Origin: Candidatus Levyibacteriota bacterium
GTDB taxonomy: Bacteria; Patescibacteriota; Microgenomatia; Levybacterales; UBA12049
DNA length: 64,000 nt
Assembly (NCBI GenBank): GCA_027334565.1
Contig: DAHWUP010000003.1
Location: 31,961-95,960 of the forward strand
Reading direction: 5' to 3'
Position numbers and translations under genes: made by a program. The notes below the pieces were generated by a model, which saw only the letters and a program-made list of their open reading frames with translations, was not told where the DNA came from and did not search any database. This document shows positions 41,792-48,380 of the stretch, piece by piece. Position 1 is the stretch's first letter. Every line of letters begins with the position of its first letter.

Positions 41792-42440
41792 CTTACGTGC
41801 TTTGGAGACGCTTAAAATTGTTGATTTTATCGCTTGTGAAGATACCAGGAAAGCAGTAATTTTGATTAATCACTATTTTCCCAACGACCAAAAAGAAATG
41901 CAGGGAAAACTATTCTCATATTATGAGCAGGTCGAACTCACGAAGATTCCGCAGATAATGAATTTGCTGGCAAACGGTAAAAGTGTGGCTCTTATTTCGG
42001 ACGCAGGCACTCCTTCAATCTCCGACCCCGGATTTAAATTGATCAGGGAGTGTGTAAGAAGTAATATACCGGTGATTTCAATACCCGGCGCCTCTTCGGT
42101 TGTTTCCGCCTTGGTAGCATCGGGTTTACCGACGGACAAATTTACTTTTCTGGGTTTTCTTCCGCAAAAACCGGGACATAGAATCAAGCTTTTGGAGAAT
42201 GTTAAAACATCTCAACAAAGTCTGTCCTCGACCGTGATATTCTTCGAGTCTCCTTATAAATTAATCAAAACCTTGCAGGATTTGAAAAAAGTATTTGGAA
42301 ATATCGAAATTACGCTTGTAAGAGAACAAACCAAAGTTCATGAGGAAATAATCGCGTCTACGATAGATGAGTTGTCGGAAAGATTTGCTATAGGAATCAA
42401 AGGAGAATTTGTGGTTCTTTTCAGTCTTAAGACGACTTAA
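41739..42440 (+). CDS. rsmI: 16S rRNA (cytidine1402-2'-O)-methyltransferase RsmI
   Basis: N-terminus GSLYIVATPIGNLQDITLRALETLK matches RsmI (TP-methylase fold). I chose the internal Met. The track ORF begins at 41700. Confidence 0.85.
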   Translation: MGSLYIVATPIGNLQDITLRALETLKIVDFIACEDTRKAVILINHYFPNDQKEMQGKLFSYYEQVELTKIPQIMNLLANGKSVALISDAGTPSISDPGFKLIRECVRSNIPVISIPGASSVVSALVASGLPTDKFTFLGFLPQKPGHRIKLLENVKTSQQSLSSTVIFFESPYKLIKTLQDLKKVFGNIEITLVREQTKVHEEIIASTIDELSERFAIGIKGEFVVLFSLKTT

Positions 42441-43689
42441 GTTCCTGTTCGATCTGTAACAGCCGGTTGTATTTGGCAATTCTTTCTCCGCGTTGTGGGG
42501 CCCCGAATTTACAATAATCTGCAGAAACAGCGACAGCAAAGTCGGCGATAAAGTCGTCATTGGTTTCGCCCGACCGGTGCGAAACAATGATTTTCAAACC
42601 GGCTTGTCTCGCCATCTCAACAACAGCCAAAGCTTCGATCACCGTCCCAATCTGATTCGGTTTGATAATAATCCCGCTGATCGCCTTTTTTTCGATTGCG
42701 GTTCCAAGACGCATAGGATTGGTAACGGTTAAATCGTCCCCGACAATTATGGTTTGCCCGGATAACCTTCGGTAAAGTTCTGTCCACCCGTCCCAGTCGT
42801 CTTCGGATAAACCGTCTTCAAGGTAAAGAAAATGATAGTCCTTGTTTAATTGTTCGTAAAAATTGACCATGTCGCCGGAAGACAGGCTGCCTGATTTATC
42901 TTTGATATGATACTTATTTTCCGAATACAAATTATTTGACGCTACGTCCAATCCCATAAAAACGTCAAAACCTAACCTTAAATTCGTAGATTCAACCGCT
43001 TGTTTGACCGCAATAAGCGCGTCTTGGTTTGAGGCCAGTTTGGGTGAAAAACCTCCTTCGTCTGCGATCAGCGTAGAAAGGTTGTTTGAAAGCAATATCC
43101 TTTTTAGCGAAAAATATATTTTCGTACCGGTTTCCAACCCCTGGGAAAAAGTCATCGATGAGGCAGGTATGACCAAAAATTCCTGAAAATCGATAGTGCT
43201 GCTTTCCGAATGTAAGCCACCGTTCAGAATATTAAACATCGGCGTAGGAATCTTAAGAGAAAGGTTATCGGTTCTGATAAATTCCCGTAAATATGTGAAC
43301 AACGGTATTCGGTTGCTGCGCGCGGATGCTTTGGTTACCGCCATCGATACGGAAAGTATGGCATTGGCTCCGAGTTTGGATTTATTCGGCGTCGCGTCAA
43401 GTTCTATCATTTTCTTATCTATATCCTGTTGGCGGGTAGATTCTAAATTTAATAATGCCGGGGCGATAATGTCGATAACGTTTGAGACTGCATGTTCAAC
43501 GCTTAGGCCCTGATATTTATCCGGGATTCCGTCACGCAGTTCAAAAGCCTCATATTTACCCTTAGAGGTGCCGGCCGGACAGGCTGCCGTACCGTAAGCG
43601 CCGTCGGATAAAAGGACCGTAGTTTCTATAGTAGGTTGTCCTTTGGTATTTAAAATCTGTCTGGAAAGTATCTTGGAAATTTTTGCCAT
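42427..43689 (-). CDS. eno: Enolase
   Basis: N-terminus SKILSRQILNTKGQPTIE plus the enolase signature. 420 aa. Confidence 0.97.
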   Translation of the reverse strand: MAKISKILSRQILNTKGQPTIETTVLLSDGAYGTAACPAGTSKGKYEAFELRDGIPDKYQGLSVEHAVSNVIDIIAPALLNLESTRQQDIDKKMIELDATPNKSKLGANAILSVSMAVTKASARSNRIPLFTYLREFIRTDNLSLKIPTPMFNILNGGLHSESSTIDFQEFLVIPASSMTFSQGLETGTKIYFSLKRILLSNNLSTLIADEGGFSPKLASNQDALIAVKQAVESTNLRLGFDVFMGLDVASNNLYSENKYHIKDKSGSLSSGDMVNFYEQLNKDYHFLYLEDGLSEDDWDGWTELYRRLSGQTIIVGDDLTVTNPMRLGTAIEKKAISGIIIKPNQIGTVIEALAVVEMARQAGLKIIVSHRSGETNDDFIADFAVAVSADYCKFGAPQRGERIAKYNRLLQIEQELKSS

Positions 43690-45914
43690 TATATTTTATT
43701 TATAAACTTTTTTTCGGACTGAAACAAGATTTTTTCGGCTTGGGCAAGATAATCGAAGGGAACGGATATCGCAGTTAAACCGATTGGCAATAAAGCATCG
43801 ACAAGCTCACCGAAATTGGATAAATCTTCATTAAGTATGATCGCCGGAAGCGACTTGTCCGATGCAACTTTGAATATTTTTTCAATGTTTGAAAGTAGCG
43901 GAAAAGAATATTTGTTCAATTCGGAGAATATTTCCGGATTATGCCTATCGGTACCAAACAGAAGACTTAAAATCGATTGATAATCGACAAAAATCCCGCT
44001 AATCCCGCAGTCAAGAAATTTTTCTAAGTCGTCTGCGTTTGCGGGAATGTTAGCCGTTATGTATAATTTAAGGCTGTCGGTTTGTGAAAAACCCGCTTCC
44101 TTAATGATCTTCATTATGTGTAGCATTTCTTCCAAAGTTCTAAGATATGGTATCGATACGGATAAATTTTTTGCACCGTGCAGAGTTAAAGCTTTCTTTA
44201 TCGCTTCAAGTTCAAGGTTAAAGATATCCCGATCGTGAGTGTATCGAAAAGCACCGTGAAATCCGAGTAGGGGATTTTCCTCTGTTCCGTCATAATCCGT
44301 ACCGTTTTCCAAACGCCTGTAATCGGCGGTTGTAAGGTTGGTCAACTGGTAAACCACCGTTTTCGGAAAAAAAGTCTCGCATACTAAACTTATATAACCG
44401 GCCAGTTTTTCGATTAAAAGATGCTGTTCGTTTCTTTCGATAAGTTTTTTGGGATGTATTCCGATTTCCTCGATAATTTTATGCGCGTCTCCGATGAATG
44501 CGCCATCGATGTTTTCGTTTTTAAAATCATGGAAGCTATCTTTATAATGTGCGCTTATATAAAGCTTGGTAGCAAAATTAATTTTTTTATTTTTATGCTC
44601 GTTAGTCGTTGGATTAATCGATAAACCTCCTTTATAAATTTCTCCCTTGGTAGCGTTAAGGGTAATAATTTGGTCATTTTTCAAAAGTTTTGAAGCATCG
44701 TTGGTTCCGGCAATGCAAGGCATGCTAAGATTTTTAGACTGAAAAAGTATCTGCATGTTCTTGTCATAGTCATCGATAACCACCGCTGACGCTTTCTTGA
44801 GGGAACTTAAATAAAATGATTTTATCGCTTTAATCACGACTATATCGCCCGGTGAAATGTGGTTGGCGCTTACCTTATCCGTAACAATTCTGGCAGGCCC
44901 CGACGAAATTCCGCGATTGACCGGTATTCCTCTTAAAATTACTTCTTCTGAATCATCAAAATATTTATTTTTTCTAAGAGTCGGAGTATTTTCCAACGGT
45001 AGGGTTTGAATAACAAATAATCTGTCGTTAGCCAGCGCCCATTCTATCTTTTGCGGAAAAAAACTGTATTTTTCAATGACCTTTCCGAGCTCTGCCAATT
45101 CCAAAATTTTTGGATCAGAAATTTTTTGGCTGTTGCGATTAATAAAACCGAGGTTTACTATCTTATTTTCAATGCCGACTTTTTTAAACTGTTTTTTTTG
45201 TTCGGAAATAGTTTTATCGATGATCGTCAAATCGGATTTTCGAATTCTATAGACGTCCGGTTTTTCTTGATTTAGCGAAATCAGTTCACCGAGACCGAAA
45301 ATAGCCTCTATTACAAACTCCTCTTTTGCATAAGTATTGGGGTCGACGGTATAGATTAATCCTGATTTTTCGGACTCGATCATTTGTTGGACAATCAGCG
45401 TGGGTTGTATGCTTGAAATCTCGCTTAACTGCTGATGTCTAAAAAATAAAAGCCTTGGATTAAATTGTTGGGCCCAGGCTGATTTGATTTTTTCGAGCAA
45501 TACGGCTTCACCTTTAACATTTAGAGACGCGCTTGACGAGGTATCCGCAGAGATTTCCGAAAATTTGATGGAAACAAGCGGTTCATTCAGATTCTTGTAT
45601 GCATCGACTATTTCTCTGCAAAGGTCTTCCGGTAAAACTGCGTCTTCGATCATTTTTTGAAGTATCGCCGAGATCTGATGAAGTGATCGAAGATGGTTAA
45701 AGTTAGCGGTCGAGCAAATTTGTCTTATCTTGGTATCAAGTTTGTTTTCATGTAAAAAATGAGTATAGGCTGCAGGTGTAAGTACAAATCCGTTCGGGAC
45801 CGGTAGACCGAAAGCATACATTTCTCCCAAGCTTGCTGCTTTCTCTCCCAACTGCAAGGCATAAGTCTTATCAATGTCTTTAAAGAATTTAAGATAATGT
45901 AAGTTTTTATCCAT
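43689..45914 (-). CDS. PEP synthase / pyruvate-water dikinase-like protein (PpsA family), probably with a non-canonical swivel domain
   Basis: N-terminal PPDK_N ATP-grasp region (ALQLGEKAASLGEMYAFGLPVPNGFVL), a central mobile domain and a C-terminal PEP-binding TIM barrel (NPLLGFHGAFRY). Where the conserved GGRTCHAAI phospho-His motif should be, the sequence reads DDYDKNMQIL. Confidence 0.75.
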   Translation of the reverse strand: MDKNLHYLKFFKDIDKTYALQLGEKAASLGEMYAFGLPVPNGFVLTPAAYTHFLHENKLDTKIRQICSTANFNHLRSLHQISAILQKMIEDAVLPEDLCREIVDAYKNLNEPLVSIKFSEISADTSSSASLNVKGEAVLLEKIKSAWAQQFNPRLLFFRHQQLSEISSIQPTLIVQQMIESEKSGLIYTVDPNTYAKEEFVIEAIFGLGELISLNQEKPDVYRIRKSDLTIIDKTISEQKKQFKKVGIENKIVNLGFINRNSQKISDPKILELAELGKVIEKYSFFPQKIEWALANDRLFVIQTLPLENTPTLRKNKYFDDSEEVILRGIPVNRGISSGPARIVTDKVSANHISPGDIVVIKAIKSFYLSSLKKASAVVIDDYDKNMQILFQSKNLSMPCIAGTNDASKLLKNDQIITLNATKGEIYKGGLSINPTTNEHKNKKINFATKLYISAHYKDSFHDFKNENIDGAFIGDAHKIIEEIGIHPKKLIERNEQHLLIEKLAGYISLVCETFFPKTVVYQLTNLTTADYRRLENGTDYDGTEENPLLGFHGAFRYTHDRDIFNLELEAIKKALTLHGAKNLSVSIPYLRTLEEMLHIMKIIKEAGFSQTDSLKLYITANIPANADDLEKFLDCGISGIFVDYQSILSLLFGTDRHNPEIFSELNKYSFPLLSNIEKIFKVASDKSLPAIILNEDLSNFGELVDALLPIGLTAISVPFDYLAQAEKILFQSEKKFINKI

Positions 45915-45954
45915 AATTTAATTATGTTTGCTTGAAGAACAATTATCAAGAGGA

Positions 45955-46992
45955 TTATTTTTTAAGTTCTTGCTTAAAATAATCAACCCAGGGGATTAAG
46001 CTTGGATTCTCGTCATAAATCAATGCCAAGAATAAAGATAGGTAACCTCCGAAAGATAAAACATTCAATACTTGATCAAGCTTTGTATTTCCCTGCGCAT
46101 CGTATTCGGTAATACCGACGTTATTTTTTGCAATAACTTCTTCGGTAAGCCTTAGGCGCTGTTTAATTTTGGTTTCGTAAAGATCGGATTTTAAAAAAAG
46201 TGCTTCGAGCTTATTGTCTTTCGGATATTTTAATCCTTCCATTAGATGATGGTTAAGCTCCGGAAGTCTGGAAAAATTTGCAAAACTTTTTGCGGTTTCA
46301 TTCATCTGATTCCTTAGAATATGGGCATTGCCTTTGAGAAAATCGGCCGCGATAATAAGAGGAATTTTATTATCAAATTTAAGCGATAACTCTTTTGCAG
46401 TTTTAATAATTCGTTCCTGTTCAGATCGCAGGAGATAGACCGCACGTTCAAATTCATCGTCAGTCATATCGATCAATCCGGTTTGTTTTATAAGCGCGAT
46501 GGTTCCAACAATTATATATCCGGTGCCGAGTCTTGGTTGACCGCACGGATTATGTTTGGGGTCAAATACCAACCCTGGAGACTGTTTTGTATTTACCATG
46601 TTACCGAGTTCTCCTCCCGAAGTCAAAATAAGCGTCTGACAACCTAGTCTTAAAGCTTCGGTTGCACAAGACAAAGTTTCTTCTGTTGTGCCGGAGTAGC
46701 TTGTCAATACGACCAGTGTTTTGGAATCGGCAAATTTTGGCAAGTGGTAATCGTTGATAATCACAAGAGGAATTTTAAGCCTGTCGGCAAACAATGATTC
46801 CAAAACATGGCCTCCGTATGAAGAACCGCCCATGCCGGCGATCACCAGTTTATCAATATCCCGTTTGGGAATTTTGATATTATAAGCATCTTTCCAGATT
46901 TGTTCGCATTGCGCCGGAAGCATTCCGGTAGACTCGTATACTTTTTGCGGGTCCAGTTTTCTGATCTCGTTTATGTCTTCAAAATTTATCAT
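45955..46992 (-). CDS. Bifunctional phosphoglucose/phosphomannose isomerase (SIS domain)
   Basis: SIS-domain motifs VIAGMGGSSYGG and VVLTSYSGTTEETL. 345 aa. Confidence 0.8.
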   Translation of the reverse strand: MINFEDINEIRKLDPQKVYESTGMLPAQCEQIWKDAYNIKIPKRDIDKLVIAGMGGSSYGGHVLESLFADRLKIPLVIINDYHLPKFADSKTLVVLTSYSGTTEETLSCATEALRLGCQTLILTSGGELGNMVNTKQSPGLVFDPKHNPCGQPRLGTGYIIVGTIALIKQTGLIDMTDDEFERAVYLLRSEQERIIKTAKELSLKFDNKIPLIIAADFLKGNAHILRNQMNETAKSFANFSRLPELNHHLMEGLKYPKDNKLEALFLKSDLYETKIKQRLRLTEEVIAKNNVGITEYDAQGNTKLDQVLNVLSFGGYLSLFLALIYDENPSLIPWVDYFKQELKK

Positions 46993-48380
46993 TGTTTTGC
47001 TATAGACAGGATAAAAGTTTTCAACTCGTTGAATTTTGTGTCAGTCAGTTGTTTTTCAAAGGATTCCACATTCAGTCTTAACAAGGGTTCCGTATTGGAT
47101 GACCTAACATTAAACCTCCAGGTCGGATTGGAAAAAGTGATCGCCACACCGTCCAGATCGTTAAGTTGCCCGTCTTTATATTTATCCTTTAGTTTATTTA
47201 GAATTTCATTTGCGTTGGATACCTTAAAATTAAATTCACCGGATTCGTAACTCCTCTGCAACTTTGCCAAAATTTGGGATAAAGATTTTCCCTCTTCGGA
47301 TAAAACCTTTAGTACCGCGATGATGGTAGCAACCTGTGATTCGGCGTTGCCGGTAGCCTTATAATAAAAATGGCCGGAAGATTCGCCGGCAAACACTCCG
47401 CCGGTTTCGGTCAAAGCTTCCGTAATATATGCATGGCCGACTTTTGTGATCACCGATTTGCCTCCGCATTCCTCGACGATTTTTTGACTTCCCAAAATAT
47501 ATCTGATATCAAATAAAATGGTTGATCCCGGGTATTGTTTTAACATTTGTTCGGCTATTAAGGATGTTATTTTGGTGGCCTCAACTACCTGTCCTTTTTC
47601 GTCAATAAAATATAGTCTGTCACCGTCTCCGTCCGGAGCAAGACCCAGATCCGCTTTTTCACTTAAAACTTTATTCTGAAGATCTTTAAGGTTATCGAAA
47701 TTCAACGGGTCGGGCTGATGAGCGGGAAAACTTCCATCGAGTTTAAAGTTCATTCTAATAAGCTCCCCGGGTATCTTTTCAAACAGCGCATCGATATATG
47801 TTCCTCCCATCGCATTGGCCGGGTCCGCAACTATCTTAAATTTTTTGATCATTGGATTTCCGAAAATCTTAAGAGCATTATCCACCTCGTCTTCCAGGAC
47901 GCCGGTTTTTTCTTCGATAGTACCCTTGAATTTTGGGGTATATCCGACACCGGATAGCGCCATTTGTTTGATTTCGTCCATCCCTGTCGGTTTTCCGATC
48001 TTCAATAGGCCTTTCGGTGTATTGATCACGAATTTCAAGCCGTTGTATTCCGGCGGATTATGAGAGGCTGTAACTTGTATTCCACAATCGTAATTATAAT
48101 GATTGACCGCAAAATAAAACGTCGGAGTAGAGGTCATGCCGGCGTCATAAAGATGCGCGCCCATTTCAAGCAAAGTTGTTTTAACCGCAGCATAAAGTTT
48201 GGGTCCCGATAATCTCATATCGTAACTTAACAAAATATTCAGTTGGCGATCGTCCGAAATTTTCTCGGTGAAGAATTTATAAATGGCTTTGGTTATTTGA
48301 GAGATACCTTCTTCGTCAAGTTGGGTAGGGTATATAGCTCTGATATCGTAAGATTTGAAAATTGAAGGATCGATGGTCAT
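46989..48380 (-). CDS. Phosphoglucomutase/phosphomannomutase
   Basis: Active-site TASHNPPEYNGLK, Mg loop DGDGDR, 463 aa. Confidence 0.9.
   Translation of the reverse strand: MTIDPSIFKSYDIRAIYPTQLDEEGISQITKAIYKFFTEKISDDRQLNILLSYDMRLSGPKLYAAVKTTLLEMGAHLYDAGMTSTPTFYFAVNHYNYDCGIQVTASHNPPEYNGLKFVINTPKGLLKIGKPTGMDEIKQMALSGVGYTPKFKGTIEEKTGVLEDEVDNALKIFGNPMIKKFKIVADPANAMGGTYIDALFEKIPGELIRMNFKLDGSFPAHQPDPLNFDNLKDLQNKVLSEKADLGLAPDGDGDRLYFIDEKGQVVEATKITSLIAEQMLKQYPGSTILFDIRYILGSQKIVEECGGKSVITKVGHAYITEALTETGGVFAGESSGHFYYKATGNAESQVATIIAVLKVLSEEGKSLSQILAKLQRSYESGEFNFKVSNANEILNKLKDKYKDGQLNDLDGVAITFSNPTWRFNVRSSNTEPLLRLNVESFEKQLTDTKFNELKTFILSIAKQ

Follow-up and report, generated by a model that had tools for sequence, protein, structure and literature searches.

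The gene at 43689..45914 in the 64,000-nucleotide window analysed here, a stretch of contig DAHWUP010000003.1 from a Candidatus Levyibacteriota bacterium, likely encodes an orthologue of phosphoenolpyruvate (PEP) synthase, PpsA, that has become a pseudoenzyme and is kept for a non-catalytic role (this gene and every feature located below lie on the minus (-) strand). The parts of this statement differ in strength. The protein is very probably dead as a dikinase; no such activity is expected because the phosphate donor site, the phospho-carrier residue and the acceptor site all appear to be gone. That the gene is retained for a non-catalytic function is a claim towards which we lean only a little, and we do so because missense changes are filtered out, a face of the swivel domain is conserved in four lineages and 2.2 kb of coding sequence has survived. 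With its catalytic residues lost, purifying selection acting on it and a fold that is predicted to be intact, the product is a probable pseudoenzyme.

The open reading frame (ORF) starts with ATG and runs for 741 codons plus the stop. Pfam finds three domains in its product, each above the gathering score: the ATP-grasp domain PPDK_N (residues 21-318, 44961..45854; 183.8 bits, gathering score 27), the mobile swivel domain PEP-utilizers (residues 354-424, 44643..44855; 30.6 bits, gathering score 23.1) and the PEP/pyruvate-binding barrel PEP-utilizers_C (residues 494-731, 43722..44435; 58.5 bits, gathering score 22.8). Judged by this three-domain architecture and by the conserved gene order, the product is a member of the PpsA homologous superfamily. 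The best NCBIfam matches are the PEP synthase equivalogs NF005057 and TIGR01418, both of them under the curated cutoff (418.2 bits, cutoff 598, and 403.4 bits, cutoff 739.75, respectively). The nearest solved structures by sequence (phmmer) are the PEP synthases 8a8e, 9dae and 2ols, and identity to canonical PpsAs of Patescibacteria is 39-41%. A search of 5.8 billion proteins returned no match between 46% and 100% identity.

For the catalytic residues, a reference set of 114 canonical Patescibacteria PpsAs was used to build a profile hidden Markov model (HMM), and a MAFFT alignment of 120 sequences was made. Twenty positions, which we take to be the counterparts of known catalytic residues in PPDK, Enzyme I and PpsA, were scored, each of them showing conservation in 113 or more of the 114 canonical proteins. 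The protein from the window keeps four of the 20: K25, E291, Q303 and R657. The ATP-grasp domain accounts for three of these (K25, E291 and Q303, out of seven positions). Here the Arg and Ser of the VRSS motif are changed (R117 to Lys, S118 to Phe), and the phosphate-binding loop VRSSATAEDL..SFAGQQET is reduced to a remnant at residues 117-131 (45522..45566) which reads KFSEISADTSSSAS and carries a 7-residue deletion in the SFAGQQET loop. Canonical FPQDIEWA is FPQKIEWA (residues 286-293, 45036..45059), the Mg-binding Asp at position 289 being replaced by Lys, and the QTR motif has become QTL (R305 to Leu; residues 303-305, 45000..45008).

In the swivel domain none of the four catalytic positions is kept. 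The canonical GGRT[SC]H stands opposite YDKNMQ (residues 383-388, 44751..44768) in three phmmer alignments (to 8a8e, 9dae and 2ols), in the MAFFT alignment and in the alignment to the canonical HMM, which is ungapped here and has maximal posterior probability. The Thr of GGxT is replaced by Asn, Met387 (ATG, 44754..44756) lies opposite the Ser/Cys that precedes the His and Gln388 (CAG, 44751..44753) occupies the column of the phospho-carrier His itself, the latter two assignments coming from phmmer and the HMM alike. The PROSITE pattern PS00370, which we take to be G-[GA]-x-[TN]-x-H, is matched as a regular expression by 114 of 120 close homologues; the six that fail are the protein from the window, P0002-P0004, P0016 and P0077.

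The PEP/pyruvate barrel keeps one of nine positions (R657). R476 is changed to Asp, E478 to His, R523 to Gln, D526 to Asn and E622 to Asn; the Mg/PEP-binding Asn-Asp pair is gone (N646 to Gln, D647 to Ser), since SIGSNDLTM is replaced by FVDYQSILS (residues 642-650, 43965..43991); and the catalytic Cys is Leu694, in ILNED (residues 693-697, 43824..43838) in place of (I/M)CGQA. Neither substrate Arg is left, nor is the Glu, the Asn-Asp pair or the catalytic Cys. Over their whole length canonical PpsAs have 258 columns with conservation of 97% or more, and the protein from the window retains 132 of them. The same test applied to other proteins of this genome gives 64 of 66 columns for enolase, 314 of 317 for UvrB and 123 of 127 for phosphogluco/phosphomannomutase (PGM); because these keep nearly all their conserved columns, the degeneration is confined to the ppsA-like gene. 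Of the marks by which a functional PpsA would be recognised, the product lacks the swivel His, the ATP-grasp set, the barrel set and scores above the equivalog cutoffs.

The original prediction, made from the sequence alone, had aligned YDKNMQ with GGRTCH, and in this it was right. Its statement that Met takes the place of the His is off by one residue, and is contradicted by its own alignment string, which implies Gln. The HMM alignment that it had named as a check puts Gln and not His at the catalytic position, and the homologues that it had proposed to inspect for the same substitution, orthologues 44-46% identical to the protein, also have Gln there, encoded by CAA. Its description of the ATP-grasp and barrel domains as intact does not hold at the level of catalytic residues. 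The suggestion of a pseudo-dikinase without its phospho-carrier His is borne out apart from the residue named, and was if anything understated, as the ATP and PEP/pyruvate sites are gone too. It also raised a regulatory role, which the protein may have.

The gene occupies a slot whose order is holA-pgm-pgi-X-eno-rsmI-dedA-lexA-uvrB-rplS-pyrG, preceded in the contigs compared by a likewise shared stretch that begins with obg-methyltransferase, and in every contig compared X is PpsA or PpsA-like. The degenerate form is found at X in the contig analysed here (L004) and in L001 (protein P0003), L008 (P0002) and L049 (P0121); canonical PpsA is found there in L005 (P0006) and L006 (P0021). Because it sits in the same slot as canonical PpsA in sister genomes, the gene is a true positional orthologue of PpsA and not a paralogue, and on this positional reading it is a PpsA orthologue that died in place. 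The earlier remark that it adjoins enolase in a glycolytic cluster is confirmed: the order is pgm-pgi-ppsA-like-eno, and the stop codon shares one base with the ATG of enolase in the sequence TAATG (43687..43691). In L001 and L049 the corresponding overlaps are of 8 nt. Since the stop of the ppsA-like gene overlaps the enolase start, the two genes are likely to be translationally coupled.

A neighbour-joining tree of concatenated enolase, UvrB and LexA places L004, L001 and L049 in one clade nested among genomes that bear canonical PpsA. Derived motifs, N[MI]QILF, FPQK[IV]EWA and IKS[FS], are common to P0001, P0002, P0003/P0004 and P0016. This suggests a single inactivation in the ancestor of the clade as the simplest history. 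In a scan of GTDB genomes one further fragment of a degenerate-clade member (L038) was returned.

The gene is clearly under purifying selection. Between L004 and L001 the proportion of non-synonymous sites that differ (pN) is 0.37 and that of synonymous sites (pS) is 0.80, a pS of about 0.8 being found for every gene compared between these genomes. Since pN lies far below the saturated pS, missense changes are still being removed, and not only nonsense changes. Despite differences at 46% of the aligned nucleotides, neither of the two ORFs is interrupted, whereas of 400 copies simulated under neutrality not one remains open at as little as 10% divergence, the average being 11.5 stop codons. The four degenerate lineages are 44-53% identical to each other and the remodelled swivel loops are conserved among them. 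Conservation within the clade is highest in the swivel (identities of 48-63%) and lowest in the C-terminal barrel (33-49%).

The fold is predicted to have outlasted the active sites. An AlphaFold2 model calculated from a 40-sequence alignment has a mean predicted local distance difference test score (pLDDT) of 83.8, with disorder only in two inter-domain linkers and a fall in pLDDT to 57 at residues 121-130, in the remnant of the phosphate-binding loop. The predicted template modelling score (pTM) is low, 0.45, as expected of a swivelling enzyme. Foldseek gives PpsA (2ols, E = 3e-50) as the top match. The N-domain of the model superimposes on the ATP-binding domain of rifampin phosphotransferase [5hv6, template modelling (TM) score: 0.90, r.m.s.d.: 2.2 Å] and the C-domain on the PEP-binding domains of 8a8e (TM: 0.90) and 9dae (TM: 0.85), with r.m.s.d. 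of about 2 Å. The PpsA fold is predicted to be retained.

We regard it as unlikely, if well short of negligible, that the gene is a functionless relic in slow decay, with PpsA dispensable and the ORF held open only by the polarity of a stop codon on the coupled enolase and by the need for a product that folds and is not toxic. A number of observations speak for such decay and against a retained role. All three domains have been hit, and the gene evolves about 2.8 times faster at non-synonymous sites than canonical PpsA, because dN is 0.51 between L004 and L001 and 0.18 in a canonical pair at similar UvrB distance; the same appears in protein identity, at 44% when degenerate sister lineages are compared and 75% in canonical pairs, UvrB identities being 81-85% throughout. 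Synonymous sites are saturated and give no numerical dN/dS, so the argument for selection is made from pN against pS and from the neutral simulation instead. The purifying selection could itself reflect only the keeping of a translated, enolase-coupled ORF from misfolding, and the stop/start overlap with enolase is seen in the degenerate clade (L004, L001 and L049). Elsewhere in Patescibacteria the same slot holds two-domain (ATP-grasp and swivel) PpsA remnants of 388-424 aa or mosaic degenerate versions, with all three domains affected in 68 of 115 full-length representatives, and a fragmented PEP carboxykinase (PEPCK) lies beside one degenerate gene; together these observations suggest a general erosion of the PEP-pyruvate node. 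A single origin is read from an unbootstrapped neighbour-joining tree built from three proteins, and the operon partner enolase is among them. Neither the window nor the roughly 20 kb covered beyond it on the source contig has a pyruvate kinase, PPDK or second PpsA, and a compensating enzyme may lie elsewhere in the genome.

What argues against mere decay is, in the first place, that missense changes are still filtered, as the comparison of pN and pS shows. The remodelled swivel loops have been conserved across four lineages that are themselves no more than 44-53% identical, and the 2.2 kb of the gene came through the diversification of the clade; small genomes in the candidate phyla radiation (CPR) are expected to delete useless DNA. 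Nor is the rate extreme for this genome pair, since the 44% identity of the PpsA-like proteins is little below that of the housekeeping holA (52%). It is on these grounds that we favour retention for a non-catalytic role.

An active phosphotransferase that works by other means, either direct transfer without a phospho-histidine or a different carrier residue, was among the suggestions of the original prediction and is very improbable, as both the donor and the acceptor site are gone. In its favour, the model keeps the three-domain fold, K25, E291, Q303 and R657 are still present, and in some distant truncated relatives a His stands two residues further upstream than usual. The essentials of both substrate sites are nonetheless lost: the residues that correspond to R337 and T453 of PPDK differ, the Mg-binding Asp is Lys, the phosphate loop is deleted and the Arg pair, Glu, Asn-Asp pair and Cys of the barrel are replaced. 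These C-domain replacements vary even inside the degenerate clade and so speak against a new active site in that domain. As a substitute phospho-carrier, the nearest upstream His, H352, was considered and rejected; it is 36 residues away and without conservation in the clade, and none of the 30 residues on either side of position 388 is a His. The change from His to Gln is moreover that of the non-phosphorylatable Enzyme I H189Q (2l5h). That a normal His is masked by a mistake in base calling or assembly, or by a shifted alignment, has next to no chance of being the explanation, even though CAG is one base from CAT and CAC, for the whole 12-residue motif is altered and not a single residue, its alignment is ungapped with top posterior probability, the identical protein is called on four contigs and is recorded from NCBI, ENA and Logan sources, and orthologues 44-46% identical share the Gln, with CAG in the contig analysed here and CAA in two sister lineages.

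The history that we propose for this pseudoenzyme begins with a single inactivation, in the ancestor of the protein described here, P0003/L001, P0002/L008, P0016 and, as sister, P0121/L049. ATP-grasp domain, swivelling phospho-histidine domain and PEP/pyruvate barrel, the three stations of the phosphate relay, would all have lost their catalytic residues. Phosphate would then be neither taken from ATP, nor carried, nor delivered to pyruvate, and the loss of the same residues would switch off the reverse reaction as well. Afterwards the gene would have been kept as an intact three-domain protein, predicted to fold, which evolved faster (about three times) but under purifying selection. It would be expressed from a pgm-pgi-ppsA-eno operon, probably in translational coupling to enolase. 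Its non-catalytic role would be structural or regulatory, and might reside in the N-terminal and swivel domains.

Degenerate PpsA-like genes are also found beyond this clade. A profile of the degenerate clade was run against 1.84 billion representative proteins and the best 150 matches were inspected. Among the 115 of these that are full-length, 12 are canonical in all three domains and 68 are degenerate in all three, the remainder being mosaics of canonical and degenerate domains; neither 12/115 nor 68/115 is an estimate of prevalence, as the profile is biased towards degenerate sequences and highly divergent ones may be partly misaligned. Among the residues seen at the His position in these matches are Tyr, Pro, Gln, Asp and Ala, and the change to Gln recurs in P0123 and P0127. 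In the genomic contexts examined (P0121, P0129, P0164, L043 and L048) the degenerate gene is always directly upstream of enolase. A member of the P0121 cluster bears the NCBI name 'phosphoenolpyruvate synthase'.

One full-length case from the scan of GTDB genomes, at 5986-8175 of L043 (Patescibacteria single-cell amplified genome AM-311-P01), is 27% identical to the protein from the window and also lies upstream of enolase. It keeps GVNDLT and has FPQKIEWA, and is without GGRTSH and without the catalytic Cys; its degeneration is independent. The two-domain remnants, which come from the same scan (L046 62-1333, L047 5902-7176 and L048 5971-7137) have degenerate motifs, end exactly at the swivel boundary (KGEIYKGG) and adjoin enolase or phosphoglycerate mutase. 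The displaced His, two residues further upstream than usual, is seen in L046, L047 and the full-length L043.

P0077 (756 aa) has an intact GGRTSH, with GTDD for the Asn-Asp pair and Tyr for the catalytic Cys, and may have begun to degenerate in the same manner. Near the degenerate PpsA P0129, in which the His is changed to Tyr, PEPCK_ATP is spread over three consecutive ORFs of 92, 274 and 167 aa (L050 10632-12215); the gene is either a pseudogene or has been misassembled. P0262 (1174 aa), a PpsA that is canonical in other respects, carries an intein-sized insertion exactly at GGxT|SH. The profile aligns in two separate parts to further long representatives (1049-1229 aa; for example P0192, P0200, P0229 and P0233), which fits insertions like that of P0262, and they probably contain them.

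The broadest reading of these data, that Patescibacteria have repeatedly turned PEP synthase into a non-catalytic, enolase-coupled protein, is one that we put forward tentatively and with more doubt than belief. Such proteins would form a new pseudoenzyme family, in which the N[MI]QILF face of the remodelled swivel and the shell of the ATP-grasp domain would have the part of a regulator, a scaffold or a sensor of metabolites at the end of glycolysis.

Of the neighbouring genes, enolase (42427..43689) is co-oriented with and overlaps the ppsA-like gene and, with 64 of 66 conserved columns, looks functional; the enolases of the degenerate clade (those of the window, L001 and L049) keep 64-66 of the 66. 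Enolase identity is 70% between clade members and 81% between genomes with canonical PpsA at similar UvrB distance, and constraint at the end of glycolysis may be mildly relaxed in the clade. Upstream lie a phosphoglucose isomerase (PGI) of the bact-PGI_C type (45955..46992) and the phosphogluco/phosphomannomutase (46989..48380), with which the sugar-phosphate genes of the cluster begin and which keeps 123 of 127 conserved columns. The PGI is only 25-32% identical to those of L005 and L006, and the possibility that it too is degenerating was rejected as it is 50-58% identical to the PGIs of six other genomes. Two clearly distinct types of bact-PGI_C alternate in the slot among close relatives (L005, L006, L008-L011, L013, L016, L019, L025 and L026), the PGI of the window being 50-58% identical to one set and about 29% to the other, in what looks like gene displacement in place. 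L001 and L050 have an additional ORF of 145 aa, resembling mannose-6-phosphate isomerase, in the PGI slot.

A sigma-70-like site, TTGATA-17-CATAAT, lies at 45921-45949 (-), 6 nt 5' of the ATG of the ppsA-like gene, and if it is a promoter the transcript would be leaderless or nearly so; sigma-70-like sites in the region number 17 against a shuffle expectation of 16.4, and the match was not used as evidence. The additional 20 kb or so of the source contig contains only envelope glycosyltransferases. Several metagenome-assembled genomes in the comparison (L010, L012, L015, L017, L019, L022, L024 and others) are titled 'uncultured Gammaproteobacteria bacterium'. Their PpsAs match Patescibacteria/Levybacteria, as do pgm, pgi, eno and uvrB where the flanks were checked, and the titles are probably defaults or mislabels.

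The metabolism of CPR bacteria (Patescibacteria) has been inferred almost wholly from the presence of genes. Only about one CPR genome in three was found to have pyruvate kinase, and for the others PEP synthase has been invoked to close the step between PEP and pyruvate (Jaffe et al., 2020; PMC7304191). The CPR literature takes matches to PEP synthase as functional (PMC7304191, PMC7143001). The protein described here indicates that a confident three-domain 'PEP synthase' match can be without any surviving active site, so that its annotation would mislead a metabolic reconstruction. The profile search suggests that the problem is common, as 12 of the 115 full-length representatives nearest to the clade are canonical in all three domains; if repeated conversion is true, many CPR 'PEP synthase' calls would describe inactive proteins. 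The gene also raises the question of why a very small genome keeps 2.2 kb for a dead enzyme of central metabolism under selection. In the literature searched, with incomplete coverage of journals, no description of a degenerate PpsA or PEP synthase was found, and the degenerate PpsA would appear to be an undescribed pseudoenzyme lineage of a well-known family.

Among known systems the closest is PpsA itself, also called pyruvate, water dikinase (EC 2.7.9.2; 2ols, 8a8e and 9dae), which makes AMP, PEP and Pi from ATP, pyruvate and water and with which the protein shares the three-domain architecture, length, genomic slot and predicted domain folds (to about 2 Å). PpsA has the His where the protein has Gln and the GGxT Thr where it has Asn, and the residues of the ATP and PEP sites are present; by these residues the protein is a descendant of the PpsA family and not a working member of it. 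The degenerate relatives in other lineages (P0121, P0123, P0127, P0129, P0164, L043 and L046-L048) likewise belong to the PpsA family and have suffered catalytic loss in one to three domains, but their mosaics of loss differ, some are truncated and only P0121 is close to the clade described here.

PPDK (1dik, 1kbl and 5jvl) has the same design of ATP-grasp domain, swivel and barrel, and its residue map, which we take to comprise K22, R92, D321, E323, Q335, R337, T453, H455, R561, R617, E745, N768, D769 and C831, can be transferred. It is more distant, with 12-14% identity in the fold alignment, and of its residues only the equivalents of K22, E323 and Q335 are kept. PPDK mutant structures are among the fold matches of the model, namely K22A (1jde), R337A (2dik) and T453A (1ggo); K22, R337 and T453 are catalytic residues of PPDK. 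Enzyme I H189Q of the phosphotransferase system (PTS; 2l5h) has the same replacement of the phospho-carrier His by Gln at the homologous position, and is used in the laboratory as a non-phosphorylatable Enzyme I. There the change is a single engineered one in an otherwise intact enzyme, whereas in the PpsA-like protein it is natural and inherited and the other two centres are lost as well, which makes this protein a natural counterpart of the laboratory His-to-Gln mutant.

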